Source: an uncultured virus (IMG/VR IMGVR_UViG_3300031992_003405) (lineage: Duplodnaviria; Heunggongvirae; Uroviricota; Caudoviricetes). From it: a DNA stretch of 20,000 nucleotides. This document shows positions 1 to 20,000 of the stretch, one piece after another (position 1 is the stretch's first letter; each line of letters begins with the position of its first letter). The notes under the pieces are model-generated. The model was not told the DNA's origin and did no database searches. It worked only from the letters and a program-made list of their open reading frames with translations. A program made the translations under genes and the position numbers. The stretch lies in the IMG/VR virus record IMGVR_UViG_3300031992_003405. One strand, 5' to 3'.

Positions 1-3000
1 ATACAAAATTAAAGTATACAAGATTGAAATAAATTTCTATATAAGATTAGAATAAAATTGTTGAAATCACTTGTAAAGGCATATCCAGGTATGCCAGGAA
101 TAGAAACATTAGCCGAAGGATCTTGTACGATACAAAAAATATTATTTCTATATCGTGAAAATTTATCTATCTTTAACAGAAATCGTTATCGCTAATAAAT
201 ATTTATATTTATAAAGATACAATTAAATTTAATAAATAAATTATATTTAATGATTTTTAATATATTTAAAAAACAAAAAATTTATTTAAGAATTTGGAAC
301 AAAACCGACAGTCTCTGCACTAGCTTTGTAGAACCAGCCATCGTGTCCATAATCTCCAATATTAGTATATACACAGGTAAATTGTTCGCTAAGTCTCAAT
401 CCATTTAAAGGCTCTAAGTAACCTATATTCCAGTTCCTATATAGAGATTTTTTCTCATAATGAACAAAATGCAATAAAATTGAATTATAATAAAATTTAA
501 GTATACAATATTGGAACAAAACCGACAGAACCGGCTGCAACATAATTCTCAGATTGTATAGGAAATAAAGAAGGAAATGTGTTTCTCGTTCCTAGAAAAG
601 TAAAACAAATTGTTGCATACTCATAGTTAATTGTCAGAAATCTTTTCTACCAATAAATATTTATAAAGATATAATTAGATTTAATAAATAAATTATATTT
701 AATCATTTTTAATAATATTTATTATTTTACAAAATTTGGAACAAAACCGAGAGAATGATGACACCACGAACATGCACGATTACCGAAACGATCACTAGCG
801 AATGATATTAATTCAAATCTATTTGCTGTCTCTAGACTCGGAGATCTTTCCCATTAATAAATGAAATATATTTAAATACAATAAAATTGAATTCTAATAA
901 AATTTAAATATACAAAATTAAATATACAAGATTGACGTATACAAGATTGGAACAAAACTGTGATTATGATAAGTCCAAGCATTACCACAACTACCGAGCG
1001 GGTTACCATCACCCCCACCGCATACGTAAATATACCTCTCTTTGGCCCAGCCGCTGGTTGCAGATTTTCCCGGAAATCTTTCTTATTAATAGATTGAGTA
1101 GATTTAAATATAATGATACAAAATTAAAATATACAAGATTAAAATATACAAGATCGGAACAAAACCGAAACTAGCAGACATTGCCATTATTGATGACACT
1201 CGATCTGCATTGAACATGATTCCCTCAAAGTCGACATTATAGCTCATCTTATATCCTAAATTCGCATTGTACATCGACTGGCTCTTGCTCGGAGATTTTT
1301 CCTACCAATGAATTAAAATATATTTAAATGTAATGATAAAATTGAGTGCTAAGTTTTTTTAGAATAAAATCGTGAGAATAAGACGCCTCATAAGAATCCC
1401 AGGGAGAATCTTCTGCATCAGCAGCAGCCTTGCCTCTACGTCCTAGGCAAATACCTTGAGTACGTTTCTCTACTTCCAGAGATCTTTCCCACCAATGAAT
1501 TAGATATATTTTAATATAATAATAAAATTTAATTATATAAGATTAAAGTATACACGATTGAAGTAAACTTCTAATAGAATTTAAATATACAAAATTGAAA
1601 TAGAACCGTCACTAAAATAAAAATGCTCAGTACTCGCAGTAGTATCATAATCATATGACGGATCGTATGTCCATCTCGGACCAGCATCGCCCACACTAGT
1701 ACATTGGTCTATAGTCCGTGCATTTAGAGATCTTTCTTGTCAATAAATTAGATATATTTAAATACAATAAAATTAAATTTTAATAAAATTTAAATATACA
1801 AGATTGGAACAACAAAACCACTACTGCAATGGGGATGAAAACTTCCATATTCCCAAGATTCTGTCATACTAGTTATATAGATAAAAAAATGCTTAAAATT
1901 ATTATAAATACCATTAATTGGATCACGTATAACCAGAAATCTTTTCTATTAAAAGATTAAGTGACTTTAAATATAATGATACAAAATTTAAATATACAAG
2001 ATTGAAGTAAACTTCTAATAAAATTTGGAAAAAAATGGTATTATCATCATTATCACAATGGCCTGAGTTGCCTGACCAAGGAGGTAAACCAATAACTTGC
2101 AGCCTTTTAGGTAGTCGTACATTCACATTAACGTATGGGCTTGGAGATCTTTTTGACTAATATTAATATAAAATTAAAAAGTTTTAATAAAATATAAATA
2201 TATAAAATTTAAGTATACAAGATTGAAATAAATTACTATATAAAATTAAATATACAAAATTTGGAACAAAACCGCAACAATAATGTGCCCTCACACACCC
2301 AGGTAAACAAAATGGATATTCAAAGGAAGGTGCTTGTCGCGTCATTACACACCAGTCTTCATAACTGCTGTAGCCCTGATCATATCTTATTGGAACACGC
2401 GGAGATCTTTCCCACCAATGAACTAGATATATTTAAATATAATATAATGAAATTAAATTCTAAAAAAATTTAAATATACAAAATTGAAGTAAACTCCTAT
2501 ATAAAATATAAATATATAAAATTGGAACAAAACCGACATCTCTCCATACATCACACAAATGTCCCCATGTATCTTTTGGCCATTTCGTGCTACCATAATC
2601 CAAGATACCATCTTCTAACACAAACATAATTGTAGTGTCGTACTTAGGAGTCGGAGATCTTTCCCACTAATGAACTAAATATAATTAAATAACAATAAAA
2701 TTGAATTATATAAGATTAAATATATAAAATTTAAGTATACAAAATTGTGAACAAAATTGAGACTAATATATGCATAATTCATGTGCGAAGCGACGGGAAA
2801 TTTAGAAGGCCATACGCCAACTTCTCCTAGCATTAAAAACGTAATATCTCCCGAGCTAAATGTAGGGCATGGAGATCTTTTTCATTAATAAACTAAATAT
2901 ATTTAAACATAATAATAGAATTCAATTCTAAAAAAAATTGAAACAAAATCGAAAGAAAAAATTGCGAAATCACCACAACTTGACTCAGCGAAAACCTCAT

Positions 3001-6000
3001 ACCTGTGCGCCTCACACAAATAATTTTTATACTGATCACCGCTATTAACTCCCCGATTTCCATCATATCTTGTCGGAAATCTTTTTTTACCAATAAATTA
3101 GATATATTAAAATGTAATAATAAAATTCAATTCTAATATAATCGAAATATACAAAATTAGAATATATAGAATTGAAGTAAATTTCTATATAAGATTAAGT
3201 ATACGAGATTGAAGTAAACTTCTAATAAAATTTGGAACAAAACCGAGACTATGCAATTTATGATCTATGTGATAGATCCACTTGACTTCGCCAGAAAATT
3301 CTTGATTACCAGTCAAGCCAAATTGTCCAATGTTAGAATCAGAGTGCGTGTGATTCGGAGATCTTTCCTAATAATGAACTAAATATAACTAAAGATAATA
3401 AAATTAAATTTTATTAAAATTTAAATATACAAGATTTAAGTATATAAGATAGGAACAAAACCATGGACCATCGAACACCAGTTCCCTCCTTCCATAAAAT
3501 TTACCTGAAAATCGACATAGCTCGCATTCGGAGGTATTGAATACCCGGAAAGCTTATACGAAAATCTTTCCTACTAATAAATTAAATATAACTAAATGTA
3601 ATAAAATTTGGAATAAAACTGTGAATTTTATGACAACGCCAGTTACTATGTTCGTCTCCAGGAAAGCGGTTCTCAATATACGTACCAACGACGTATAAAT
3701 ACTGCATCGGAAACGACGCATCTAATTCTCCAGCTATTAGAAATCTTTTTTATTAATAAATCTAGCATATTTAAATACAATTTTATTATTATATTTAAAA
3801 TCTTTTTTAGAACAAAAACGATAGCAACAAAAGTATGTATACAGTCGCGCAGCCCAGGCTTATTGCTTTTACCTTGTGTAATGGCATATTAACCTTCGTA
3901 AAGCGAGGAGATTTGCAAAAATTTTTCCTACTAATATTAATATATATTAAGATAAAATTAACAAATATTTAATAAAATATAAATATACAAAATTTGGAAT
4001 AAAACCGCTTGGCCTATCAGCATACAATGAGCTTGCGTTAGTCCAACCGCCGTACTCCCACGGGTGCAAAAAACATGGTTTATTATGTGACTGACTCTCT
4101 TTACTCGGAGATCTTTCTCATCAATGAACTAAATATAACTAAAGATAATAAAATTTAAATATATAAAATTTGGAACAAAACCATAAACATCGATGGTATC
4201 AATTGCAGTCGCAAAATAACGCCCTGTAGTACCACGATTACTTGAGTAAGTAAAACGCTTATAAGGTTGCATATCTAAAGAGTCATTTGCGACATCTGGA
4301 TATACGCCCAGAGATCTTTCCTTCATCAATAAATTAAATATAACTAAATATAACGAAATACAATGAAATTGAATTTTAAAAATTTAAATATACAATATTG
4401 AAATAAACTTCTATACAAGATTAAATATACTAGATTGCAATATGCAAGATTGGAACAAAACCGCTTTTCCAACCCGCAGGGCCATACGGATAACTACAAT
4501 ACAGGTTCACGGCAACGTCAATCTTTCCATCGTTCCTCGTCGCACCTACAACGAAATCAAAACCTATGTCACTCGCCCCGAATTCAGCGACCCAAGCCTT
4601 CGTCGGCGATTTTTTTCATCAATGAATTAAATATATTTAAATGAATTTTAATAAAATTTAGACTATAACCCTCAACACAAGATGCATAAATGTTAATAGC
4701 CCTAGCGAAATCGTTGTAAGAACTGTATCCTACTTCGCAAAATCTTAGACTTGTATCAGCTTTAGATACGTCGACTAATGTTTTCGGAGATCTTTTTTTA
4801 CCAATAAAATATAATTAAATACAATAAAATTCAATTTTAAAAATTTAAATATACAAGATTGAAATAAAACCGTGACATTGATAGCATGCGCCCCCAACGC
4901 TAATTCCACGCTCATAATTCGAACTTAAGCCTCCACCACCGTAATAATACACAAGCAACCACCACATATCTTGCCCGGAACTACCAAGTTCCGGAGAGCT
5001 TTTTCACCAATAAACTAGATATAACTAAAGATAATAAAATTTAGAATAAAACTGAGAATATGACTACATACCTTATACTGTCCGGGACGATAATCTCCTT
5101 CCCACGCATTGCCACTATTTGCGATTGGGATATACATGGTGCCTCGAATATTGTCACCATAATTACAGTCCGGAAATTTTTTACATCAATAAAATATAAT
5201 TAAATACAATAAAATTAAATTTTAAAAAATTTTAATATACAAAATTAGAACAAAATCGACGCCATTATCGGTCCAATTACTCACGGCGTCGAAGATGTCA
5301 CATGCTGAATCTTAACATATAAGACCACTGACTTCATAATGGGTAACGTGTTGTAATTTACTCGGAAATCTTTTCCTATTAATATGAATATATATTAATA
5401 TAAAATTAAAAAATTTTAATAAAATATAAATATACAAAATTAAAGTAAACTTCTATATAAAATTAGAATAAAACCGATATTATTCCACGCATTATCAGCA
5501 TTATCAACCCAGTTTAATAACGATACATTAGGAAAATTTGGCGCTGCATTAAACACCCGACTTCTCACTACAGTACTATTACCAGACCATTGATTCGAAG
5601 ATCTTTCTCATCAATAAATTAAATATAATTAAATTGAATTCTACAAAATTTAAGTATACAAGATTAAAGTAAACTTTTATATAAATTGTAAGTATACAAG
5701 ATTATAACAAAACTGTGAATATTATTTACATAATAACAATCAGGCAAATAATAGTAGTTCTTTAAAGGCGTTTTTATTCCATACTTTTCTAACATACAAA
5801 AAGCATATTCCCAACTACCTACATTTAGAGATATTTCCCGTCAATAAATTAGATATATTATGTAATAATTAAATTAAATTCTAATAGAATTTAAATATAT
5901 AAGATTACAGTATGCAAGATTAAAGTAAATTTCTAATAAAATTTGGAACAAAACCGTTAACACGCTGAATTCCCTCGTAATTAGTGTTTGTCCACCCATA

Positions 6001-9000
6001 CCCATAGGCATGGCCGTACCATGTCAGTAAGCAAAATCCCCAACTGGGGGAAGGGTGATTCGGAGATCTTTCCTGCTAATATATATTAAGATAAAATTAA
6101 AAAATTTTAATAAAATATAAATATACAAAATTTAAAGTATACAAGATTAAAATATATAAGATTGAAGTAAACGTAAACTTCTAATAAAATTTGGAACAAA
6201 ACCGATGTATACATTCGCGTAATAAGAGCCACGCAGACCTGGCTCATTGGTCTTCCCTTGTGGCCCGCAATATTGCCCGACATAGAGTCCGTTTTCCCTC
6301 GGAGATCTTTACCACCAATAAATTAAATATATTAAAATGTAATAATAAAATTCAATTCTAAAAATTTAAATATACAAGATTAAAATAAAACCGTGAATAT
6401 AAATTGCCCTGTGATGTTGACTGGTTACCGGGAAGGTAGAAGGAAAATGGTTTGCTTCACCTAGAACACAATAGCGATTGTATTCTGCGAGCTCGTATCT
6501 TGCCGGAGATCTTTCCCACTAATAAATTAGATGTATTTAAATACAATAAAATTTAATTTTACAAAATTTAAATATACAAAATTGAAGTATACAAGATTAA
6601 AGTAAGCTCCTATATAAAATTAAATATATAAGATTGGAACGAACTCGGCGTTATGTGATGGGATGGTAGTCCATCAATCACTATATATGCCGAATCCTTG
6701 ATTAAATTCTACCGGCACGCACGAAAATCTTTCCTACCAATAAATCTAGTATATTTAAATACAATGATAAAATTTTATTTTACAAAGTTTGGAATAAAAC
6801 AGACATCTTCATCTGCATATATACGATAGGACATACACCTGCCATCTACACATAAAGTACCATAATCCCAAGCATCGATCTCTGGCGCATAACTAGATTC
6901 ATAATATTTTTGTGTTGGAGATCTTTCCCACCAATGAACTAAATATAATAAAAATAAATTATGATAAAATTAAAGTATACAAGATTAAAGTATATAAAAT
7001 TAAAACAAAATCAAGACTATCAATACCGTTTTCTCCATATCCACTTCTTGGGCCATCGCTTGCATACCAAATAGATGTGAAATTACTTAGACCATAATTA
7101 CCATAACTATCTTTATACTTTACCAGAGATCTTTTCTGCTAATAAATTAAATATATTTAAATACAATAATAAAATTGAATTTAAATATATTTAAATATAT
7201 AAGATTAAAGTATATAAAATGAAAGTATACAAGATTGAAATAAACTTCTATATAAAATTAGAACAAAACCAAGATCACAAAAGCTGTCTTCACTATGATC
7301 GCCTGCCACACCAGATTTATGTGTCATGATAGTAGACATTTGTGCATAATATCCCTTGCCTGGATATGACCCACTCACTTTAGTCGGAGATCTTTTCTAT
7401 TAATAAATTAAATATAATTAAATACAATAAAAATTGAATTTTAGCAAAATTTAAGTATACAAGATTGAAGTAAAACTTTTATATAAAATTAAATATACAA
7501 GATTGGAATAAAACCGCGAGTTGTAGTGTGTTGATCGTGAAGATGATCATCAATCGATAGGTTCGATGTACCTACACTATGTAGCTCTGCGCCCCACACT
7601 TGCAGATGGCAATAATGACTCATTGACGAATTGTTAGCCGGAGATCTTTCCCACTAATATTAATATATATTAAGATAAAATTAAAAAATTTTAATAAAAT
7701 ATAAATATACAAGATTGGAATAAACTTCTATATAAAATTAGAACAAAACCGTAAGATAGAAATACTCGGTAATTCGCGTACGCGTATCCTGCCGACACTT
7801 CACTATTATACGCATCAGTACCATATACTTTACAAAACTGTATGGTATAGTTAGCGTTCCGAACTGTCATCGGAGATTTTTCCCACTAATGGACGGAGTA
7901 TAACTAAATGTAATAAAATTCAATTCTAATAGAATTTAAATATACAAGATTAAAACGAGCTTCTAATAAAATTTGGAACAAAACCGTTACTAGCCCACAC
8001 AAAACTAGTCTTGGCAATAACATCGCTAACACTGCCGTACGATACCAGCTGGTAATTAAAGTATCCCACAGATGTAAAACATGGGTTGTTATCCTGAACC
8101 CACGGATTGAGTGACGGAGATCTTTCTCACCAATAAGCTAAATATAACTAAAGATAATAAAATTAAATTATACAAAATTTGGAACAAAACCGGCACAAAG
8201 GACGTCCATCGTATATGACGGTTTCTCAAAGCCAAGTCCAAGGACGTCACCCCTACGATGTAACCAGCACCAGTTACCGTACTTCTGCAACCCCTCGTCC
8301 CAAGTCACTGGCACATGCGGAGATCTTTCCTACCAATAAACTGAGTATAACTAAATACAATAAAATTGAATTTTAACAAAATTTAAATATACAAGATAAA
8401 AGTATATAAAATGAAAATATACAAGATTGAAGTAAATTTCTATATAAAATTAAATATACAAAATCAAAGTATACAAGATTGGAACAAAACCGTAACTACT
8501 ATTTACTACAGCATTACCACTACTGCCGAGCGGATTATTGTCACTACCATCGCTTACGTATTCATCTCTCTCTAAGGGCCATCCTACGTATGCATTATAT
8601 TTACCCGGAAATCTTTCTTATTAATAGATTGAATAGATTTAAATATAATAATACAAAATTAAAATATACAAAATTGAACCAAAGCCGTATGAATCTGTAG
8701 TTCTCCAGATGCCGTTGTCCGTGAGATCAATATCATAATTTTGTATGCCAATAAATTCAATCTAAGTCTTGTATCCCAATGCCGGGCGAATTAGTGCCAT
8801 TCGGGCCCTTATGCAGAGATCTTTCCCACTTATAAACTAAATATATTTAAATGTAATAATAAAATTTAATTCTATAAAATTTATAACAAAACTGAAGCTA
8901 TTGTATGAAAACTGTATCTCATTTTCATATCGACTAAAACCTTGCCTGCCAGTATCAGAAGTAACGGATGCATATCCGTTAATTTCGCATCGCTCACACC

Positions 9001-11131
9001 CAGCGAAAAGTAACCTGAATCTGTCTTCGACGGAGATATTTCCTACTAATAAAATATAACTAGCTAAATACAATAAAATTAAATTTTACAAAATTTAAAT
9101 ATATAAAATTAGAGTATATAAAATTGAAGCAAACTTTTATACAAGATTAGAGTAAACTTCTATATAAAATATAAATATACAAAATTTGGATATATAAAAT
9201 TGGAACAAAACCGTTAGATGTAAAATTGTATTTCCAGTTACCTAAATTGTCTATACCATGACTAATAAGAGCACCACCGTTTCCCGCAATCATTATCACC
9301 ACCCACTGCTCATCATGGTTGTTTTGTACTACAGTCAAAGATCTTTTCCACTAATGTTAATATAGAATTAAAAAATTCTAATAAAATTTAAATATATAAA
9401 ATTAAATATACAAGATCGGAACAAAACTGCCAGACTTATGTACGTTCCATTCATTACTCGTATAGACACCATGTAAGTCGGAAATGCGCAACCCGCCATC
9501 ATCAAGGAGTCTATCCAGAGATTTTTTTCACCAATAAATTAAATATATAAGATTGAAGTAAACTTCTAATAAATTTAGAAAAAAACCGTTACTTCTAAAA
9601 TTGAAAAAATGACTAGCTCCATCATATGTGTTATTCCCATATCCACCTAGTTTACACGTATCTGAATCAGAATCAGCTTCATATTTACTCGAATATCTTT
9701 CCTACCAATAAACTAAGTATAATTAAATGTAATGAAATTGAATTCTACAAAATTTAAATATACAAGATTAGAATAAAACCGTGAGAATAATAATGCTGTT
9801 CATAAGCCGCAGATCCTGAATCTCTAGCACTCGGCCAAGCCCAACTTAAATAAAACCCAGGTACACAGCACCAATTTACATAATTATTCATCTCGGGAGC
9901 CAAAGATCTTTTATAATAATATAGAAATAAAATCGATAGTATCATTAATAAACCAATAGCCAGGATCGCTAAGATGTCGTGCACTGGGCCACGCAGCACT
10001 TATTGTAAAAGCTACACTAATACCAAACCATTGATCACCACCAACTTGAAACGGAAATCTTTTATAGAATTAGATATAATAATTATTCAATTGTTTATTT
10101 TAATATCATATTTATAAATCAATGAATAATAATTATAAAATAATATAATTTAAATTAAATCTTGTTTTATTAAATACATTATTTATTAAAAAATTTTTAA
10201 ATATATAATGTTTTTTAATCAAACCACACGTTCGGTATACATGTAATCCATTACATATTCCCAAACCATTTTCTAATATGAAGTGTGGAGAAATGTCATA
10301 CATATTATTATAATTACTGCCAGAATCCTCCACGTTTTGAATAGAAATCTTTATAATAATTTAAATTATTATATTATTATTTGAAAATAAAACCGTCTAC
10401 AAAAAATACCCAATCATAGTCACTTGCTAAAGCTTGTACTGGTCCTGGCCATAAGTGACTAAGAGTTTTATACAAAACTAGAGCAAAACTCTTGTCACTA
10501 CTATCTCTAGCTAGAAATCTTTATAATATAAATATATAATTAAAAAAATTAATTACTTTTTAATTATATAGTATAATTTTAAAAATTGTTTTAGAACAAA
10601 GCCAAAATTTATTATGCCTGCTGCAAAATCTGACCCATCAAAATAGTATCCATAGCCATATCCTATCCGTTTTAATATACAAAAGTCAACTTGGTAAGTT
10701 TTGTCTAGATGCAGAAATCTTTTCTGTCAATGAATATATATTTTTAATCAATTATTATTATAAAAATTAAAATAAAATCTGAAATAAAATTTAAAATAAA
10801 ACCGTGATCATAAGGCGCCTGATCATGATTGGCAAACGATCCACCGCCACCATTCCATTGTATACCAACTAACCTTACTAACATAAATGTCGTACCTACA
10901 TGTTCTGACATTCTCGGAGATCTTTTTTATTAGTACTATTTATTATATAAAATTATTTTTATAAAATTTAAATATACAAGATTGGAACAAAACTAACATT
11001 GCGCCATACTTCGGTTAAGTGTCCCCAAGTATCTTGCGGCCATTTTCTTGAACCAAAATCATGCAAACCATCAGATAGGGTAAAAAGGCCTTCATTGCGT
11101 GTGTTGCTCAGTTTCGAAATGCTTCTATATA
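1..11131 (-). repeat. Array 1: about 51 silent variable-region cassettes (WERSP-[variable]-GFVP) separated by AT-rich linkers
   Basis: On the + strand each unit has a left anchor resembling ttggaacaaaaccg (e.g. 293, 510, 736, 2261, 2522, 3232, 5943, 6191, 7973, 8179, 8479, 9200, 10982). This is followed by a unique, more GC-rich core of ~75-140 bp and a right anchor resembling cggagatctttcccaccaatgaa (e.g. 839, 1477, 2400, 2652, 4106, 6300, 6504, 8318). Read on the minus strand the anchors encode HWWERSP and GFVPN, the residues flanking the C-terminal segment of the gene at 13013-13165. Period ~150-300 bp. The count is by eye, and the array probably continues past the left edge. Confidence 0.95.
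6186..6319 (-). repeat. Cassette identical to the currently expressed variable region
   Basis: 6186-6310 equals 13031-13155 base for base (125 bp), then one mismatch (a6311 vs c13156), then ccaccaat matches again. Encodes ERSPRENGLYVGQYCGPQGKTNEPGLRGSYYANVYIGFVPNF except for the first base of the E codon. Confidence 0.98.
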
Positions 11132-11167
11132 AAATTAATATATTAATTAGAATTTTTATATAAATTC

Positions 11168-11283
11168 ATAATAAACGCATTTATAATAAACGCATTTATA
11201 ATAAAAATATTTGTTATATCTTCTCATTTGTAATCATTTTCATCTTGTGATTATTTTCATCTCGTAATTATTTTCGCCTCGTG
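11168..11283. repeat. Short tandem repeats at the gene-proximal end of array 1
   Basis: ataataaacgcattt occurs twice plus a partial copy (11168-11205). A ~17-bp unit occurs three times: ttgtaatcattttcatc / ttgtgattattttcatc / tcgtaattattttcgcc (11227-11283). Confidence 0.7.
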
Positions 11284-12427
11284 GCGAAGTATCTAAATTT
11301 GTTCCATATATCTCTAATAATGTCTATATTATTCTCTCATTATTATAACTTAGTCATTTAGAAAATTTATTATATAAAATAATTCTATCATTAATATTAA
11401 AAATTTTTTTCATAGTGCGAAATTACGATATTTTTTATTTTTCATATTATTTCCATTAAAATTTTTGGCGGCGTGGAGTCAAATATTTTTTTTTCTTTTA
11501 TCGATTTTTTTTCTATTAGTATTAATTATTTTTTATTAATATTGATTATTTTTTATTTTATACTATTTTATACTATTCTGCCCCTGTAATTTCATAAAAA
11601 TCTGGGCAAATCTTTTATAAATATCTTTAAATTATATATAAATTTATCTTGTTTATTAAAATTTATAATATTATATCTTTTTTATTCATATATTAAGCTA
11701 AAATGAATGAAATTTACTATTATAAACATTTATATATATATTATAGTTTATATAAACTATTAGGCATATATAAATATATTAATATTTTATTAAATATTTT
11801 TGATTAATTAAATATATTACTTAAAGTAGAAGTACGACAACGTTCGACTTGTATATTAATTTTTTATTTTGCCTTTTATAGTATATAAACTATTTATATT
11901 CATTAATATAGTTAATATATCAATTATATGACAACATCGTTTGTCTAACGACTCAACGAAACTATAAAAACCGTCTTCATACCCATAAATAATTGTCCCT
12001 GCATTAAGTATTTTTTTAATTAGCCAGTTATATTCAAGGATACTTATAATATTAAAAAGTATATTCCATTTTAATGGATAATATTTTAATTAATATATTA
12101 TCCTCTATTATAAACCTTAATTGATACGACGTAGTTCGTAAATATATAAGTTGTCCAGTATATTCCTTTTAGCCATATTTTTAATTAATAAGTGTTTATA
12201 TTATTAATTAATGTATATAATTTCATTTTAGTTGTGCCCTCATAGTTTCACCCCAAACTTGTCTTTATTCCCTCACCCCAATTTGTGTCTTCATAATATA
12301 AAAACTATACGTTCCTACAATACTTTAGAAAATTATACATCATACAAGAGTACTTTATACTTTATACATTATTTTTTCATACTTTATGCTAATAAAAATA
12401 TATTAGACTATTTATATAAATTAAAAT

Positions 12428-12463
12428 AAAAGAGAATATATCAATTAAGATATATTCTCTTTT
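12428..12463. terminator. Perfect inverted repeat, possible bidirectional intrinsic terminator
   Basis: aaaagagaatatatc-aattaa-gatatattctctttt forms a 15-bp perfect stem with A/T tracts at both ends. It lies between the target gene 3' end and array 1. Confidence 0.6.
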
Positions 12464-12570
12464 TTATCTATATTAATTATTTTTATTATTATTGTTATTT
12501 TTTATCAATATATATTTATTATAATTTACTGGCTATTTCTAAGCAGATAAATTATAGGCTATTATAAATA

Positions 12571-12633
12571 TATAAATTTGTTCATTAACGTATAAACTTA
12601 TGTTCATTGACGTATGAATTTACATTCATTGAT
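12571..12633. repeat. Three degenerate ~21-bp direct repeats
   Basis: tataaatttgttcattaacg / tataaacttatgttcattgacg / tatgaatttacattcattgatg. Confidence 0.6.
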
Positions 12634-12651
12634 GGTATTAATTACTTTTAG

Positions 12652-12826
12652 TGTGTTCCAAATCTAGAAGCGGATTAATTTTTATAGCATCTTTCTCTTT
12701 TATAAGAGACTTATGCTCTTATATATTTATTATTAGCGCAATAGCCTAACGCTGTTTAGTTCATAACGTTTTTCAGTATATGAACCTATAATTTTAAAAA
12801 CTATAAGCCTTAATCCGCCGAACATA
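12652..12826. ncRNA. Putative multi-stem structured element of unknown family
   Basis: Nested complementary segments: tgtgttc(12652)/gaacata(12820), gcggattaa(12670)/ttaatccgc(12810), agcat..tctctt(12686-12699)/aagaga..atgct(12704-12717), agcg(12735)/cgct(12750), gttcata(12759)/tatgaac(12779). Confidence 0.4.
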
Positions 12827-12946
12827 TTTTACCAGTTTAACCAGTAAAATAATAGTTCCTTTTTACAACTAATCTAATGATTAATTGCTTGTAAAGTGTC
12901 TAAAATTAGGTTGTATAGATTTGTCCTAATATATGTTATTCTATGA

Positions 12947-12969
12947 TATATTAGCCTAACGCTAATATA
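12947..12969. other. 9-bp hairpin just downstream of the target gene stop codon
   Basis: tatattagc-ctaac-gctaatata, ~45 nt beyond the stop at 13013. The core tagcctaacgct is repeated at 12742-12753. Confidence 0.55.
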
Positions 12970-13012
12970 AATAGTTTATAAGTATACAAGAGTACAAATA
13001 TACTTAATACCT

Positions 13013-13423
13013 TTAATCAGCCACCATTACAAAATTTGGAACAAAACCGATGTATACATTCGCGTAATAAGAGCCACGCAGACCTGGCTCATTGGTCTTC
13101 CCTTGTGGCCCGCAATATTGCCCGACATAGAGTCCGTTTTCCCTCGGAGATCTTTCCCACCAATGAACGGCAGCGCCGAGATTAACTCCAGTAGCACCAG
13201 AAACAGGTGTATTTTTAGCATCAGCACCGCGAATGCGGTATGAAGCTGCGCTATTAGTAGTATAATAAGCATAACGAGCTTGCTTATTCTTTTCATAGCT
13301 ATTTGCATAGCTACGTTCACCGAAAATCTCAAACTCTGCCATTAAGAAAATATAATCGCTAGTATCATTAACATTACTCTCAGTGTCGGTAGCACCGCCC
13401 ACATTATCCGTATATTTTTTGAC
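13013..13423 (-). CDS. 3' part (exon 2, 136 aa) of a DUF6273/C-type-lectin-fold-like variable protein; contains the expressed variable region
   Basis: The frame of the 129-aa ORF extends upstream as VKKYTDNVGGATD.... The motifs KKYTDN..G, DYIFLMAEFEIFG, YANSYE...Q..YAYY, WWERSP and GFVPNF match my recollection of DUF6273-type phage/DGR target proteins. Joins exon 1 in frame as ...SYIKP|VKKYTDN.... Confidence 0.85.
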   Translation of the reverse strand, partial: VKKYTDNVGGATDTESNVNDTSDYIFLMAEFEIFGERSYANSYEKNKQARYAYYTTNSAASYRIRGADAKNTPVSGATGVNLGAAVHWWERSPRENGLYVGQYCGPQGKTNEPGLRGSYYANVYIGFVPNFVMVAD

Positions 13424-13825
13424 CTGATACTATATAAAATTTTCTTTATTTTTTATATTAATAATAATTTTATTTTACAAAATTTATTTAAAATTAATAA
13501 AAAAATATATTAATTTTAGTAAAATTGTTTAGATTAATAAAAACTTTAAATTAATAAAAATATTAGATTAATTCACTGTCCGTATACTTCATAAAATGCT
13601 TATTATTCTTGCATTTTAGCAATATTTATTATATATTATTTATTATATTTTTTTTATAATATTATATTTAATTATTTAATTTTAATACTTATAATAAATT
13701 CCCTTTTCACTATTATTATAATTATTAGTATTTATACTAATTATTTATATTCATCAATATTTAAAAGCTACTATTAAATTTTCACTTTACTATTATTATT
13801 ACTAATATTGCTACTAATACTTATA

Positions 13826-15259
13826 TTAACTAATAATATATTTTCCACGTTTTTGCAATAATTTTATATATTTATATCTACGTTCCAATTTTTTATTATT
13901 ATTTAATTGTTTTAATTGAAAACAGCCATTAGACCGTAAACTATTTATATAATATACTTGTCCTTTATGTTTTACTAAATCATATCTTCTAAAATTATAT
14001 GTTATATAAGGACATTGATTCTTCCGCTTTTTATTATTTTTATATATTTTATCCTTATATATCTTTCTATTATGATTTCTTACTTTTTTCATTAAATATA
14101 CTTTAGTATCGTTATTACTTCTTCGTAAACATTGATTAGCTATTATTCTTGCATCTATATGATGATCTTTTTCTAAATTATTCCTTTCTCGAATTAATTT
14201 AGTTTCATAGCCATATGTCTTTTCTATTTTCAGTTTTACTGATACACCTTTGGCGTCCGAGCATGCTCGGAAACCTACTTCATATCCTAATTTTATTAGT
14301 TCTTTATATATTCTATCCTTAAGCATATTTAATCTCGTATTTTCTTTATATTCTTTTATTTTAAATTTTATTTTTTTATTATTTTTTAGATATTCATGTA
14401 CTTGTTTATGACAATGTTCACATAAAGTAATTAAGTTTTCTGGTACATTAGTGCCGCCTTGAGACTTAGGTTTTATATGATGTACGTGTAATTTTATATT
14501 ATCTTTTTTTAAAATATCTAAAGATTTCTTACATTTTTGACAAGTATAATTATCTCTTTTTCTTACATAAGATTTAATATTTTCTTCATGATATAATAAT
14601 CCTTTTTTATAAGATTTAACCTTATCTATTTGCATATTAAATTGTATTAATTCACTTTTTAAGGATAAATTAGATAGATTATTATTATCAATAATATTAT
14701 TAGTATTAATAATATTATTATTACTTATATTATTACTTATATTATTACTTATATTATTATTCTTTAATTTACAAATATTAAAATTATTATATTCATATCT
14801 TATTTTATCTATATGTACATATTTATTAAAGAATTTAATAATATTAATATAAGTTAATAAGCTAGCTTGCATAGATGGTGGAATCCATCCATCTTTTTGT
14901 TTTCTATATATCTTTTTTCTATTATTCCACCTAGGAGGTCTATATCTTAATCTATTCCTTCTATTACGTCTAGCATTTCTTCTGGCTTCTAGTAATTTAG
15001 GTATATCTGTTCTTTGTTCTAACTGTGCCTCAAAGAGGACACGTTGTTTAGTAGTAATAGAAATACCAATTGTTTTGCCAGGATCAATGCCTATAGTAAC
15101 ATCTTGAAGTTTAGGATCATCGATTTGATAATTGAGTTTAATAGTGAAAGGAAAAAATTTAACGACTTTAGCTAATTTCTTTTTTAATAATATTCTAGCT
15201 TTAGCAGGATGACAAGGCATAAGCCTTGTACCATCTTTATTAAAAACAAAAACTATAAT
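13826..15259 (-). CDS. iscB: IscB RNA-guided endonuclease (IS200/IS605 OMEGA; RRXRR/PLMP, split RuvC and HNH)
   Basis: N-terminus IIVFVFNKDGTRLMPCHPAKARILLKK (PLMP-like); RuvC-I IGIDPG; Arg-rich bridge helix RRNARRNRRNRLRYRPPRWNNR; RuvC-II IRYE; HNH RDNYTCQKC..LHVHHIKPKSQGGTNVPENLITLCEHCH; TYGYETK; RuvC-III HHIDARII. The frame is open upstream of the ATG at 15220. AAGGAG (15272-15267) lies 7 nt before ATT 15259, suggesting a non-ATG start. Confidence 0.92.
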   Translation of the reverse strand: MIVFVFNKDGTRLMPCHPAKARILLKKKLAKVVKFFPFTIKLNYQIDDPKLQDVTIGIDPGKTIGISITTKQRVLFEAQLEQRTDIPKLLEARRNARRNRRNRLRYRPPRWNNRKKIYRKQKDGWIPPSMQASLLTYINIIKFFNKYVHIDKIRYEYNNFNICKLKNNNISNNISNNISNNNIINTNNIIDNNNLSNLSLKSELIQFNMQIDKVKSYKKGLLYHEENIKSYVRKRDNYTCQKCKKSLDILKKDNIKLHVHHIKPKSQGGTNVPENLITLCEHCHKQVHEYLKNNKKIKFKIKEYKENTRLNMLKDRIYKELIKLGYEVGFRACSDAKGVSVKLKIEKTYGYETKLIRERNNLEKDHHIDARIIANQCLRRSNNDTKVYLMKKVRNHNRKIYKDKIYKNNKKRKNQCPYITYNFRRYDLVKHKGQVYYINSLRSNGCFQLKQLNNNKKLERRYKYIKLLQKRGKYIIS

Positions 15260-15369
15260 AATTGCTCTCCTTTATTAAGGATTAAGTTATTATAAATAAT
15301 ATATAAAATGGGATATAACCCAAATTTATAATCAATTACTTATATATATTTTTTATGAATATATATAGT

Positions 15370-15610
15370 TATATAATCTCCCACGCTAAAATTATTCTGA
15401 GTTTAATAATTATATCACTGTTAACCTATAAACTGTTTAAATATAATCCGCAGATTTCTAACTAATAGCTAGGCGCTTTTTTAGCGCATCATTTTAAATA
15501 TAATTTAAAATGAAAATAAAGCTTCAAGCTGGAAGAACACTTAAAGATGCCTATATATTTCAGAATAATGTAGTCTATATTAGTATAGACTAAAGCTGAT
15601 GAATCAATCT
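15370..15610 (-). ncRNA. omegaRNA / HEARO-like RNA scaffold upstream of iscB
   Basis: Minus strand reads cagctttagtctata-ctaa-tatagactacattattctgaaatatataggcatctttaagtgttcttccagcttgaagcttt...ttaaacagtttataggttaacagtg...aaactcagaataattttagcgtgggagatt. This follows the HEARO/omegaRNA motif order as I recall it (AGACTACRTT, ATAGGCA, CCAG..AGCT, TTAAACAG, ACAGTG, GCG.GGGAGA). Long-range pairing ttattctga/tcagaataa (15560-15568 with 15392-15400). Position directly 5' of iscB is as expected. Boundaries approximate. Confidence 0.75.
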
Positions 15611-15657
15611 AAAAATTCTATTGATCTAAAAATTCTATTAATCTAAAAATTTTATTA
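15606..15657. repeat. Three ~17-bp tandem repeats at the 5' edge of the omegaRNA-like scaffold
   Basis: aatctaaaaattctatt / gatctaaaaattctatt / aatctaaaaattttatt. Confidence 0.7.
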
Positions 15658-15871
15658 GTTTAAAAAATTATTTTATTAACTTTTAAATTAATTATTAATA
15701 TTATTGAAAAATAGTTTTATAAAATATTGAAAATTTTATATTAATTAAGCTTTATTATTGAAAAATTATAAAAATAATTATTAAATTTATAATAAAGCAT
15801 AGATTATGTCATTATTATAATTAATAAAATATATTAATTATATTAAATTTTCCATTAATAAATTAATGTAC

Positions 15872-15934
15872 ATTTATTAATCGTTAAATATATATTAATA
15901 AAAAAACATTTTATATTAATATATATTATTGATA
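15872..15934. promoter_or_regulatory. Copy 1 of a ~62-bp direct repeat with an internal inverted repeat
   Basis: atttattaatcgttaaatatatattaata-N14-attaatatatattattgata; near-identical to 16908-16969. Confidence 0.55.
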
Positions 15935-15993
15935 AATTTTATAGAATATATCAATAATTATTATACTTATTAATAAACCCTAATATAAAATTA

Positions 15994-16818
15994 AGGTTTA
16001 ATATAAGACTTCCATGCTGGATCAATAGCGCTATGAAATTGCTTACAAATAAATGTACGCATATATGACATCTTCCAGCCACCAGAGTTACTATTAGTAA
16101 GATTCATACGGAAGCCAGCATCACTACCGGTTAGATATAATCTGTTATCAACAAATGCAATATCACCAGCAACATGTGCATCTGCGTTATCTCTTGTGAC
16201 GCGACGGCTAAGACTGAAATGAATAGAATTCTTACCATTAGTTTCTACAGTCGCATTATGATCAAAGCCGAGAATATATGCGCAGAAATTAGAATTATTT
16301 GAAAAAGTCTTATATCCAACTGTACCATTAAGCTTAATAGCTGCAGTATTACTACCTACACCGCCAGCATAATTAGAATTTTCAGGACCCCAATAGTTCT
16401 TATGTAATCCAGCATTAAGAATTGCTTGAATCTGTGCGGGTGAACATTGAGAAAGAACATGAGGAATGTTAGAAACGCTACCGGTATAAGTGTTAGGACC
16501 AATTGTAACTGTACGAGTCATAGCAGCATAACCATTAGTGGCATCTGCACCTACAGTAATAGTTAATGTTGCTGTAGTTGATGCTTCACTATAGCCGGAA
16601 GTTGTAGAAGTACGTTTAACAACGACTTCCTGATCATTAATAACTTCACAAGTATAATACGTGTTGGGAGTAACACTAGCACTAAGAGTGCCTTTACTTT
16701 CTGTTGAAACCCAGACAAAAACTTCATCATCAAAGTTATTAATATACGAAGGAATTACTGCAATTGAAGGATTCCAGGAAGCACCTGCATCCAAGCCGAT
16801 TACTTTTCCTAAAGCCAT
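15994..16818 (-). CDS. 5' part (exon 1, 275 aa) of the variable protein; T/S/V-rich, probably beta-sandwich N-terminus plus the start of the DUF6273-like domain (putative tail fibre, adhesin or receptor-binding protein)
   Basis: 275-aa ORF with higher GC than its surroundings. Motifs YILGFDHN, IHFSL, FRMNLTNSNSGGWKMSYMRTFIC and AWKSYIKP resemble the N-terminal half of DUF6273-like domains. The stop at 15991-15993 is the first codon of the insertion. Confidence 0.85.
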
Positions 16819-16907
16819 ATTATTTTCTATAATATGTTAATCTTTTTATTTATAAAAAGTATAAAGACTATCTAATTTATTTCATTTTTATTAAAAATAA
16901 TTACTTT

Positions 16908-16969
16908 ATTTATTAGTCGTTAAATATATATTAATATAAAAAAATTTTAATTAATATATATTATTGATA
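16908..16969. promoter_or_regulatory. Copy 2 of the ~62-bp direct repeat, ~90 bp upstream of the target gene start
   Basis: atttattagtcgttaaatatatattaata-N12-attaatatatattattgata; contains the 13-bp inverted repeat aatatatattaat/attaatatatatt. Confidence 0.55.
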
Positions 16970-17516
16970 TATTATTTAATTAATTTTTATAATTATACCA
17001 ATAAATTTTATATTAATGAGGTACTTAATATGAATTTAATAATATTTTTATGATAATATTTTTGTAATAATACCTCTTTTTTATTAATTTACTAGTTAAT
17101 TAGTTAATTAATTAACTAGTATAACAAATTTTATATAAAAATTAGTTTTTATATAGAAACATATTTCTAGTAAATATGTTTATTTTTTCCATTTATTTTA
17201 ATAGTAAATATTTTTAGTATTTTATTATTAAAACATAATAGAACAATAAACGATATTTACATTTTAATAATATATTTAATTTATCATTTTATTTAAAAAG
17301 AATTTTTTCTATAAAAAATGAAAAATTTCAGGGGTTGTTAAAGTAAACGCCAAGTTTTATTAATAAACACCAAACTTTTTTAATAAATTATGAAGTTTTT
17401 TAATCAATATTAAATTATTTATTATGATATAAATATTAATTATTTGTCGCGAAAAGAATTTTAAATATTATATTAAAATGAACAAATATTAATAAAATAT
17501 TTACTAAAATGAACAA

Positions 17517-17969
17517 TTATATTTTTAATTTTTTAATAGTGGTTATATTTATAGATTGAATTGTTGTAATGGCATTAGAAGTATCTTTAATAATTTTTAA
17601 TAATTTATCAAATATTTTACTAGATTCTTCTACGGATTTAAAAACAGTATTACCTTCATTAAGCATTTCGAAAAGAAAGATTACTTCAATTTTGAGATTG
17701 AATAATAATTGATTAGCTTTAGTTAATAGATTTTGTTTTTCTTTGAATTGTTCCATGGATAAGTCTTTAGATAATTTAATATATTCCGATTGAAGGCAAT
17801 AATTAGTAATTTTTTGCATTATATCTAATATATTATTAGTAATAACATATCTATAAGATTTAGGCATATGTCTAATAGTTTTATTAATCATTTTTCTTAA
17901 TTTAAAAGATAATTTAATATAGTCTTTGTCTAGCTGATAAGTTTTTAAGAATAAATCAATTACTTTCAT
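17517..17969 (-). CDS. avd: Avd-like (DGR accessory variability determinant) four-helix-bundle protein, ~150 aa
   Basis: Basic, apparently all-helical protein with the pattern L...I...I..MPKSYRYVI...I.......I......I.......Q...KQ..L.KAN..L..L...V....E, resembling the Avd/four-helix-bundle (F/M)PK..RY.L..I signature. Start placed at ATG 17969 after GAAAGGA; the ORF track starts at 17987. It is adjacent to a gene with a DGR-target-like C-terminus. Confidence 0.62.
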   Translation of the reverse strand: MKVIDLFLKTYQLDKDYIKLSFKLRKMINKTIRHMPKSYRYVITNNILDIMQKITNYCLQSEYIKLSKDLSMEQFKEKQNLLTKANQLLFNLKIEVIFLFEMLNEGNTVFKSVEESSKIFDKLLKIIKDTSNAITTIQSINITTIKKLKI

Positions 17970-18079: not shown

Positions 18080-20000
18080 TAAGATCTCAGCAAACTACAG
18101 GTGATGCATTTTATCCGATTCAATGGTGTCGTTTAGCTTATGAAGTTGAAGGTCATTATCATGAGATAGAAGCAGGTGGTGCGTACAATGACTGGAGAAT
18201 ATGCGCTAGTTTCGGTTTTATTCTTTATAAAATTTACAAATTTATTAATAATAATGATCTTCAAATAGATGTGCAAATACGATGAGTCAAAATCATATGT
18301 TATGGTTACATTATGGTTATAAATATGGAGTAACCCAATATAGTGACAATGCATATTGGGTTAACAATTTTATTGTAAATTTTATATTAATTATAATAAT
18401 TTATTAATAAAAATTATCTCCGACGAAGAAAGCTTACTATCTTAAGGGTTATTGTACGATGGGTGATGCTGGTCCGCATCAAACATATGATCCATCTTAT
18501 GATTATGATACATCGGCAATGCTTGACTGGAGTATTGTTGATTACGGTTTTGTTCCAAATTTTATTAATAATTATTTTAAAGGCTTTTTATTAAATTTTT
18601 ATAATTCTAATTAATATTAATTTTTATAAAGATTTCCGTGGAAAGATCTGAGATTTGGAACTGAACCCGTGCAGGCATTTTTAGAACCGCAAGGACATGG
18701 TAATGACGACGTTCCGTTCGTTATCTGGATGTTTGCTTCTATCCACAATTCTGGTTTTGTTCCAAATATATTTTTTTATATTATAAATATATAATTAAAA
18801 AGATCTTTGGATGTATGTTATATATCGGCACATGCACAATGGCATGGTTTTGGTATTGGTTATGGACAAACTAATTTTTATACTCCTGTAAATGATGATT
18901 ATTCTGGTGGAACGAGAGGCGGTTCTTCGATTATTAATTTTGGTTTTATTTTTAATTTTATTAATAACTATTTAAAAACTTTTTATTAAATTTTTATAAT
19001 TCTAATTAATATTAATTTTTATAAAGATCTTTAGCAACATACCCTAATCCAAGTCAATATCCTGCGATAGAGATTGGAGATATAGGCGTACATGCTAGTT
19101 ATGAGCCGAAAAATGACTATGATACAACTAGTATTTTTGAATACAGTATACACAGTAATGATTTTGTTCCAATCTTGTATATTCAATTTTATATACTTCA
19201 ATTTTGTATAAATCTATTAAAAATTAAATTAATATAATACAAATGTTATAAATAATATAAAATCTATTTATTAATAATAAAAGATCTCTGAGAAAAGATG
19301 ATGGTAATATAGAAACTCGATCTACGTCTGGAACTTTAACTCCTAACACTGGTATTAATCATCATGATTATACGATGTATCAAGATAACGATTTCTTTTA
19401 TCACGATTTTATTTTTAATGGATTAAAAAAATATTTTTAATTTTGTATAAAGATTATATTAATTCAATAAATAAGATCTTCGTGTAATTCGCAATATGCT
19501 TACAGTGCTACACGATACTGGTGCAGGCAGTCACATGATATAGCTGATAACTTTGCGATAGCTCGCAAGGGAATTGACGAATATGAGACATCATCTAACG
19601 GTTTTATTCTAATATGTAAATAATAAAACAAATTTTAATTAATACTGAAATTTATTTTAATTCTATAATTAATCTCCGAATCATAACAGCATGGATCTTA
19701 ATATATTTATACCTCCCGTTTCAGCATTAGGTATAGAAGGGCATGATGATACTAGTGCATATGATTGGAAATATTTTCATTATAATGAGTTTCGGTTTTA
19801 TTTATGATAAAATCTAAATATTTTCAAAATATATAGTAAATATTCGTGACAATGATAAAAACATATTATAAAGATCTCTGACTTGGTTGACAAACTGGAT
19901 TGGAATTGCTTTTGGTACGATTGGAGATGCAGGACAGTTTTATAGTTATGATTCATCGCATGATTATGACGTTTCTGCCGTATTTGAGAGTGCTGTATGG
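18080..20000 (+). repeat. Array 2: about 10 variable-region cassettes in inverted orientation, truncated by the window edge
   Basis: Units start with aagatct-like anchors (18081, 18255, 18415, 18628, 18799, 19023, 19281, 19473, 19671, 19871). They end with cggttttgttccaa-like anchors (18213, 18358, 18545, 18752, 18941, 19159, 19404, 19599, 19793). Example translations: SPTKKAYYLKGYCTMGDAGPHQTYDPSYDYDTSAMLDWSIVDYGFVPN and RFPWKDLRFGTEPVQAFLEPQGHGNDDVPFVIWMFASIHNSGFVP. Confidence 0.92.

Follow-up and report, generated by a model that had tools for sequence, protein, structure and literature searches.

How can a phage gene be expressed when its two halves are held 2570 nucleotides (nt) apart by an insert that carries a nuclease gene? 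This question is raised by a stretch of 20,000 nt from an uncultured member of the Caudoviricetes (IMG/VR record IMGVR_UViG_3300031992_003405), referred to here in its entirety as the window (20 kb, 16-35% G+C). The interrupted gene is a DUF6273 gene of tail-fibre type, and the insert holds iscB, which encodes an RNA-guided nuclease, together with its omegaRNA. We find that the insert, intron (b), has a junction helix, motifs and core helices like those of group I introns, that a smaller sister, intron (a), precedes the same gene, and that the IscB unit appears to sit in intron (b) as a separable element. The insert is probably a group I intron that still splices, with IscB nested in it as a passenger.

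The host gene is the sole expressed copy of a cassette gene and lies on the minus strand at 16818..13013. Its exons and the insert between them are arranged as follows.

15994..16818, minus strand: exon 1 of the host gene, 275 amino acids (aa), ending SYIKP; identified by its open reading frame (ORF), sequence, homologues and PHROG 37900
13424..15993, minus strand: intron (b), the whole insert, 2570 nt, beginning UAA and ending ..GUAUCAG
13424..13431, minus strand: 3' tail of the insert, AGUAUCAG, with the terminal G, read from the sequence
13013..13423, minus strand: exon 2, 136 aa, the DUF6273 part (Pfam), beginning VKKYTDNVGG

The insert (15993..13424) interrupts the gene exactly at IKP|VKK, and the TAA directly 3' of exon 1 consists of the first three insert bases. 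The boundary cannot be shifted, because the first and last insert bases differ from the adjoining exon bases. A spliceosomal GT-AG reading was rejected, since intron (b) has UA..AG ends and allows no such shift, and Rfam gave no match to group II, hammerhead or other ribozyme families. The initial annotation had proposed a precise in-frame interruption (IKP|VKKYTDN), and homologues confirm it. The homologue P0002 (locus L003; 422 aa, 64% identical) is uninterrupted across the junction (..SYIKPVKKWTDNVGG..), and BLAST of the L003 DNA against the window yields two blocks that break at 1000|1001, equivalent to 15994|13423. A cluster look-up returned P0276 (411 aa), which is exon 1 and exon 2 joined at IKP|VKK and is identical throughout, including the variable tip. 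Both L003 and P0276 place the junction at the same point.

The exon 1 homologue search gave five non-self homologues, and three of these five stop at the same column. P0004 and P0005 (47-52% identical) end at ..IKP, and the P0003 group, with three variants on 3+3+2 contigs, ends at that column as ..IGS; P0006 ends earlier. Among 75 metagenome loci with more distant relatives, iscB occurs only in L002, which is the window's own DNA, and elsewhere the two halves abut. P0006 shares a 15,233-nt contig with P0282, and the gene is split there at another place (..DSQLYYCL, then MNLSNTNSGGW..). The IKP|VKK site of this relative is uninterrupted (..AMKPVIKYTDN..), and either a frameshift or a further interruption may account for the split.

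The joined product P0276 is encoded on a single Logan contig of 1776 nt. Logan assembles its contigs with k = 31. Because no 31-mer is common to the exon ends, the contig is not a mis-assembly. Exon 2 contains an exact 125-nt copy of a cassette, and at this k a DNA contig of the phage should therefore break there, whereas an RNA contig need not, the cassettes being silent. For this reason an RNA origin of the P0276 contig is more likely, and we infer that the exons are joined at the RNA level. The Joint Genome Institute contig behind L002 breaks at the cassette repeat, and the long DNA contigs that carry the gene (48.6, 74.5 and 92.3 kb) are all interrupted, either as separate ORFs or by the insert directly. 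RNA runs contain 0.66, 0.51 and 0.33 of the region's sampled words, of which 0.33 is the exon-only expectation; these shares are hints only. L003 spans 1775 nt, close to the 1776 nt of the P0276 contig and to the length left after removal of both inserts (4580 - 2570 - 244 = 1766). We give little weight to shared transcript ends and loss of both introns as a reading of these near-equal lengths, and there is no terminator at the L003 end.

We also considered whether the gene works in pieces and rejected this, as exon 2 offers no ATG for a separate start and five stand-alone exon 2 relatives lack an N-terminus of their own. Where exon 2 stands alone in the database, the protein either begins with the GTG or ATG of NVGG or represents a fragment of an uninterrupted gene. 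The proposal that the insert has to be removed for the variable C-terminus to be expressed is upheld, in that exon 2 with its variable tip can be joined to exon 1 only in that way.

The start of the insert contains a group I-like core. The helices were checked base by base, except for P8, and all features lie on the minus strand.

15749..15999, minus strand: group I-like core of intron (b)
15999-15990/15984-15975, minus strand: P1, 10 base pairs (bp), with U15994.G15980 at the junction
15954-15949/15934-15929, minus strand: P4
15926-15915/15899-15888, minus strand: P6, 12 bp
15882-15878/15806-15802, minus strand: P7
about 15846-15812, minus strand: P8, read from the fold
15798-15789/15758-15749, minus strand: P9
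15878..15886, minus strand: R-like motif UAACGAUUA, covering J6/7 and the P7 5' strand, which aligns with the invariant AACGACUA of T4 and Twort introns
15801..15810, minus strand: S-like motif GACAUAAUCU, covering J8/7 and the P7 3' strand, which MAFFT aligns under GAUAUAGUCU of known introns and which pairs with R

In P1, the junction sequence AAACCU|UAAU pairs with AUUAGGGUUU over 10 bp. Shuffling the first 80 nt 20000 times gave such a helix in a fraction of 0.0004, which substantiates the P1-like helix with a U.G pair noted at the 5' junction; by a looser definition, 673 of the 7465 T positions on the minus strand have a P1-like surrounding. The terminal G of the initial annotation is likewise present, the insert ending ..GTATCAG. 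Both introns have a P1 with U.G and an internal guide, and both end in G (G13424 in (b), G16827 in (a)), a feature that is weak on its own. R and S are group I core elements and were verified on known introns: AACGACTA and ATAGTCT are present in 8/8 T4 and Twort introns examined, and R is invariant in their alignment. P4, P6 (12 bp), P8 and P9 can be drawn in canonical order in both (b) and (a). All core helices except P1, P7 and P9 consist of A-U pairs only.

A second insertion just upstream allows the core to be compared with a relative in the same DNA.

16827..17070, minus strand: sister intron (a), 244 nt, between the ribosome-binding site AAGAGGUA and the ATG of the host gene; absent from L003

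Where L003 reads ..aaaaagaggta|aaaataatATG, the window carries 244 extra bases. Intron (a) is group I-like, has 9% G+C and carries R as UAACGACUA, S as GAUAGUCU 47 nt further on, and the terminal G16827. The R and S of (a) agree exactly with the motifs shared by the T4 and Twort introns. Its P1 pairs GAGGUAU|U with AGUACCUC over 8 bp, with U17070.G17024. The two introns share a 129-nt block at 80% identity, and the R word of this block occurs only at these two places in the window; the R-block word had no match in IMG/VR, and distant blastn of intron (a) against phages found none. A strict R followed by S within 150 nt occurs once on the two strands of the window, on the sense strand and inside (a), and in 3 of 1000 dinucleotide-preserving shuffles (p about 0.003).

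The differences between the two introns are informative. P7 is GACUA/UAGUC in (a) and GAUUA/UAAUC in (b), a compensatory change from C:G to U:A that keeps the outer G:C pair. Each internal guide fits its own 5' flank (GAGGUAU/GUACCUC in (a), AAACCU/GGGUUU in (b)), yet the guides differ at every position, and in both introns a U.G wobble lies at or adjacent to the junction. These compensatory changes in P1 and P7 argue that selection has kept the pairing. We take both (a) and (b) to be descendants of group I introns of the phage IA type. As modelled, P1 of (a) would sequester the ribosome-binding site, and translation of the host gene may depend on removal of (a).

The rest of intron (b) is dominated by the nuclease unit and the hairpin that flanks it.

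13826..15256, minus strand: iscB reading frame, with ATA in place of the canonical ATG at 15256-15254, the first ATG at 15220 and a TAA stop at 13828-13826
15371..15604, minus strand: omegaRNA scaffold, HEARO-like, identified by Rfam RF02033, compensatory pairs and homology to loci L077 and L078
15604..15619, minus strand: putative omegaRNA guide position, AGAAUUUUUAGAUUGA, placed by the scaffold start and the rule in PMC10055086 as given in its main text
15606..15741, minus strand: left arm of hairpin P9.1, from inverted repeat I6 and the fold, ending in three 17-nt units
13432..13569, minus strand: right arm of P9.1, from the inverted repeat and the fold

The 464-aa iscB ORF matches Pfam RRXRR (5.9e-46) and HNH (1.8e-11), and its protein aligns to solved IscB structures in the PDB at E 1e-32 to 1e-27. 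The IGIDPG, VHHI and DHHIDA motif columns of RuvC and HNH are invariant among 22 aligned sequences (the window and 21 relatives), so the claim of an iscB with its catalytic motifs holds, and the protein has the PLMP motif, split RuvC and HNH of the family. The start needed correction. The alignment of the homologous N-terminus IVFVFNKDGTRLMP with solved IscBs starts at their residues 2-3, which puts ATA at the canonical start, and the ORF as listed begins at the first ATG, which encodes the M of the PLMP motif. Apart from iscB, the insert has no credible ORF of at least 35 aa; there is accordingly no TnpB and, as the initial annotation had stated, no TnpA. Two features of the protein set it apart from its relatives: an N-rich low-complexity insertion at 14650-14790 (NNNISNNISNNISNNNIINTNN..) that they do not have, and a G+C-richer patch, GFRACSDAKGVSVKLKI (about 14290-14240), that is absent from their consensus.

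The closest iscB relatives are on two IMG/VR phage contigs of 167 and 159 kb (CheckV about one-third complete). Two scans that took one genome from each of 185,579 prokaryotic species gave no locus with a relative, and the exact protein is absent from a collection of 15 billion proteins. The public runs that contain the stretch are sheep-gut samples. On the basis of the phage-borne relatives, their absence from the prokaryotic species scanned and the sheep-gut runs, we take the window to belong to a large, A+T-rich rumen phage.

The upstream omegaRNA-like scaffold of the initial annotation was recovered by Infernal, in that the Rfam HEARO model matches end to end at 15604..15371 (25.6 bits, E 0.016). 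This is below the gathering score of 83 and above the 15-bit cut-off given in the main text of Meers et al. (PMC10055086). The scaffold lies directly upstream of iscB on the same strand, as in OMEGA systems, although the first HEARO hairpin is missing. Compared with three related copies, 10 of 66 predicted pairs stay paired through changes on both sides, six of them in a single long-range helix, where the window has AUUAUUCUGA/UCAGAAUAAU and the relatives have GUUAUCUCAU/AUGAGAUAAC; the scaffold is therefore under structural constraint. Searches of IMG/VR with a 20-mer word of the omegaRNA found only the two known contigs, and a 15-mer found 117 stretches, none with iscB beyond those contigs.

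According to the main text of Meers et al. (PMC10055086), the omegaRNA of IscB consists of a constant scaffold and a 5'-adjacent guide that is encoded outside the element, and it depends on transcription that enters from outside. A pairing of UUCAU with GUGGG marks the start of the scaffold at about 15603. By the published rule, a guide at ~15619-15604 would thus be intron sequence. Its only structured counterpart is the opposite arm of the hairpin that holds the IscB unit.

This hairpin can be understood from the homologous units in L077 (two tandem copies) and L078, which are intergenic, measure ~1.74 kb, begin ~25 nt ahead of the scaffold and end ~15 nt after the stop codon. In both loci the guide-position sequence (..TTAATACTCAATT..) is repeated in inverse just past the gene (AATTGAGTATTAA). 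In the window the left arm carries three 17-nt units (..AGAATTTTTAGATTGATTCA, 15653-15604) and the inner right arm lies at 13575-13522; overall, the arms of P9.1 are ~140 nt long at 75% complementarity (15741-15606 against 13432-13569; 75% over 144 nt). Because these arms flank the unit as the inverse repeats do in L077 and L078, the IscB unit is, judged from its flanks, lodged at the apex of a long peripheral hairpin. The empty P9.1 is reconstructed from the two arms, and no IscB-less copy of the intron was found. Outside the IscB element, the insert comprises ~385 nt on the 5' side and 150-385 nt on the 3' side, with 9-11% G+C.

We made further observations on these repeats. The units at L077 1595-3279 and 3618-5333 and at L078 3566-5315 have 13-nt terminal inverted repeats. 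The tandem L077 units are 86% identical and stand in front of a topoisomerase II large-subunit gene, and the guide-position sequence is the same in all three copies despite different upstream flanks. In the window, the sequence at 13576-13595, just before the right arm, contains UUUAUGAAGUAUACGGACAG, which resembles the intron's own 3' end, UUUAUAUAGUAUCAG (13424-13438), and its UAUACGGA recurs in exon 2 (13412-13405).

Taken together, the insert would be a phage IA-type group I intron that has drifted to about 9% G+C. Its catalytic core would occupy the first ~245 nt (P1 to P9) and be followed by the long P9.1, with a compact ~2-kb IscB-omegaRNA insertion element without TnpA at the apex and eight more bases to the terminal G. 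Transcription from the promoter of the host gene would give a pre-mRNA, in which guanosine-initiated splicing at U15994|U15993 and G13424|G13423 would join IKP to VKK (junction AAACCT|GTCAAA) and restore a protein of 411 aa with the cassette-diversified tip as its final ~45 residues. A possible junction for (a) would be GAGGTA(T)|AAAATAAT. The same transcript would supply the omegaRNA and the iscB message. If active, IscB would cleave this hairpin in intron copies that lack the IscB unit and would leave intron-less alleles of the host gene uncut, which would be the usual OMEGA retention or homing logic moved one level down. We hold a still-splicing intron with a nested IscB element to be probable, with real room for doubt.

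Several findings weigh against this account. RF00028, the Rfam group I model, gave no match at its gathering score, at E <= 10 on 3.4 kb or on 300-nt pieces. In E-value mode it scores the T4 introns nrdD, td and nrdB at 105.3, 40.3 and 35.7 bits and makes nine matches on Twort, three of them over the cut-off at 63.6-100.9 bits; it is thus able to see A+T-rich phage introns, and the insert is far from them. At its gathering score the model also misses T4 td and nrdB, and in the two related phage contigs it finds only end fragments of 11-17 bits. A model of our own, built from five T4 and Twort IA2 3' cores, gave 6.8 bits (E 3.9) at (a) and nothing at (b). The core of (b) is 91% A+U, P3 is drawable as 5 bp in (a) and ambiguous in (b), with two candidates, and the P7.1/P7.2 of IA2 introns are missing, so that neither (a) nor (b) is a typical IA2 member. 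An earlier, looser R/S pattern, fitted post hoc to both sites, occurred at least twice in 24 of 300 shuffles and is weak. The ends of P0004 and P0005 may be stop codons or contig ends. Run X6, which we guess to be DNA, contains a word share of 0.31, close to what the exons alone would give, and for this reason an intron-less DNA allele may exist. The canonical ATG of iscB is missing. The group I assignment of the initial annotation therefore stands in part: P1 with its U.G pair, R and S forming P7, the order of the hairpins, the terminal G and the joined product support it, and a core can be drawn, whereas the covariance models do not recognize it, so that the Infernal check proposed there succeeded for the omegaRNA and failed for the ribozyme. 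These points could also describe a group I descendant that no longer splices, with the gene broken or in two pieces here and the joined 411-aa form stemming from an intron-less DNA allele that was never invaded or was restored by recombination. Model failure, the 9% G+C core, the word share of X6 and the lost iscB ATG would all follow from such decay, to which may be added that the second insertion parts the ribosome-binding site from the ATG. We nevertheless think decay unlikely, because the changes in P1 and P7 imply selection on pairing, exon 1 is open in four diverged lineages that stop at the same column, exon 2 is intact and lacks a plausible separate start (where its ORF stands alone, it opens with the GTG of NVGG), and the joined contig passes through a 125-nt repeat at which DNA should have broken it.

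The preferred reading of a splicing intron also has to account for the role of IscB. The initial annotation had suggested that IscB acts as an RNA-guided homing nuclease that moves the intron into intron-less alleles, or that it cuts cassette anchors and so starts cassette exchange. Apart from its start codon IscB looks intact, as does the omegaRNA; the intron is met again at one site among diverged homologues; and TnpB-only IStrons are thought to home in this manner (PMC13565253, main text). Against this, the intron itself supplies the 16 nt that precede the scaffold on its 5' side, exon 2 and its variable region contain no match to any 16-mer of 15660..15600 with two or fewer mismatches, and in the cassette array the guide region matches only A+T-only 16-mers with two mismatches, in units further upstream (5176-5195, 6357-6372). 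The scaffold-adjacent guide itself has one match with two mismatches, inside an unrelated 156-aa ORF (17688-17703). The empty site of the gene, taken as an 80-mer, has no meaningful match to the insert, only one 16-mer stretch with two mismatches within the iscB coding sequence, and the same IscB unit occurs in intergenic palindromes of other phages. A guide that is intron sequence and an empty site without a meaningful match argue that IscB does not home the intron into intron-less genes. The homing reading is thus not supported by the guide sequence, we judge it very unlikely, and IscB looks instead like a nested passenger or parasite of the intron. A last alternative dispenses with the intron altogether: the insert would be a seamless DNA insertion, an IS200/IS605-like or miniature inverted-repeat transposable element (MITE)-like A+T-rich carrier with IscB, that is excised precisely from DNA, with R and S present by chance. 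Its 3' TCAG equals the terminus of group A IStrons and IS605-type elements (PMC4227781, main text), scarless excision is known for IS200/IS605 (PMC10055086, main text), and no covariance model matches. This alternative is in our view highly improbable, since R and S co-occur with p about 0.003 in an insertion and on the sense strand, P7 and P1 covary, TnpA is absent from the window, and the omegaRNA scaffold lies 390 nt inside the insert and not at its edge.

The consequences of splicing depend on the gene that is interrupted. In exon 2 the variable tip lies between WWERSP and GFVPNF, and one of the silent cassettes of the window matches it exactly.

6186..6310, minus strand: silent cassette, 125 nt identical to exon 2 positions 13031-13155 (repeat family D20)

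The matched stretch, 13031-13155, is the expressed variable tip. Neither table 11 nor table 4 nor a TAG=Q reading gives a long ORF in positions 1-11000; recoding was rejected because under both alternative codes the stretch 1-13000 stays closed, and it is a cassette array, not recoded genes. About 33 silent cassettes lie on the minus strand within 1-11000. Each consists of a WWERSP-coding anchor, ~100-150 nt of variable sequence and a GFVPNF-coding anchor, with A+T-rich spacers containing 15-nt repeats in between. A few further cassettes, inverted, are found on the other side of the gene at 18.5-19.6 kb (18500-19600). A perfect 15-bp hairpin with T-runs on both strands, resembling a bidirectional terminator, is located at 12428-12463, ~550 nt downstream of the stop codon of the gene. 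Megablast of 13000-17000 against phages and plasmids gave no match, and in IMG/VR relatives of the host gene amounted to one distant locus by search and zero by profile.

How the composite relates to known systems can be judged by comparison with three of them. IStrons, as set out in the main texts of PMC4227781 and PMC13565253, have a 5' group I core and a downstream IS605/IS607 part with TnpB, their omegaRNA spans the 3' junction, and group A members have the 3' end TCAG; their introns were called with RF00028 at a score of at least 20 (Tourasse et al. 2014, PMC4227781). Within these descriptions, intron (b) resembles IStrons such as CdISt1 (group A; PMC4227781) in its 5' ribozyme core, in the nuclease gene and guide RNA of insertion-sequence origin that lie downstream within the intron, in the 3' splice site at the far end with its TCAG, in a 5' exon ending in U and in the lack of TnpA, which many IStron copies share. 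It departs from them in having IscB with a 5' omegaRNA rather than TnpB with a 3' omegaRNA, in a guide that would lie inside a peripheral hairpin and not span the intron-exon junction, and in an insertion sequence that is nested rather than fused end to end. Its 5' flank is AACCT, compared with TTGAT, ATTAT or TTTAT in group A (PMC4227781), and its core goes undetected by RF00028 and lacks P7.1/P7.2. The insert has IscB and no TnpB or TnpA ORF, and so it is not an IStron in the sense of a ribozyme with a TnpB element.

With the phage group I introns that encode protein homing endonucleases (T4 td/I-TevI and nrdB/I-TevIII; Twort), intron (b) has in common R (AACGACUA) and S (AUAGUCU), the P1 U.G, the terminal G, a stop codon close behind the 5' splice site, occurrence within a phage gene and a peripheral helix from which the nuclease gene is looped out. 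RF00028 gives the T4 and Twort introns 35-105 bits, whereas (b) has no score. Their nucleases recognize DNA by protein contacts and cut the intron-less allele; here the nuclease would be an RNA-guided passenger whose guide points at the intron itself.

The IscB-omegaRNA (OMEGA) elements of the IS200/IS605 (ISC) type, for example GstIscB and OgeuIscB, share the PLMP/RuvC/HNH protein, the HEARO-type scaffold upstream in the same orientation, the guide position just 5' of the scaffold and the dependence on outside transcription (PMC10055086, main text). The unit described here differs in being phage-borne and in missing the first HEARO hairpin. Its relatives occupy palindromic sites, with the guide region repeated in inverse beyond the gene, and in the window that site would be the hairpin of an intron. 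In the papers searched we found no report of IscB inside an intron. Among those papers, composites of a self-splicing intron and an RNA-guided nuclease appear so far to have been described only for TnpB, in the IStrons, and the combination with IscB appears to be undescribed.

A bolder proposal, which we regard as doubtful and put forward tentatively, would extend these findings to the spread of variants of the host gene. A working ribozyme family of ~9% G+C, invisible to Rfam, would gate a host-range gene twice, between ribosome-binding site and ATG and again before the diversified exon. Its second copy would be the first IStron-like element built with IscB, from whose kind Cas9 descends, the excised intron would double as omegaRNA and iscB transcript, and cutting by IscB of IscB-less copies in co-infecting relatives would co-convert the variable exon. 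If true, a selfish nuclease would be linked to the spread of receptor-binding variants.

An IscB unit in the hairpin of an intron would in itself be a second, independent union of a ribozyme with an OMEGA nuclease, and one of different geometry, with the guide directed at the intron and not at an exon junction. Should cores of 9% G+C splice, there is a class of phage introns that standard covariance models overlook, and annotation of A+T-rich phage genomes may mistake interrupted genes for pseudogenes. Because the host gene is where the array of ~33 silent cassettes is expressed, splicing would be required for the phage to make its diversified receptor-binding tip.

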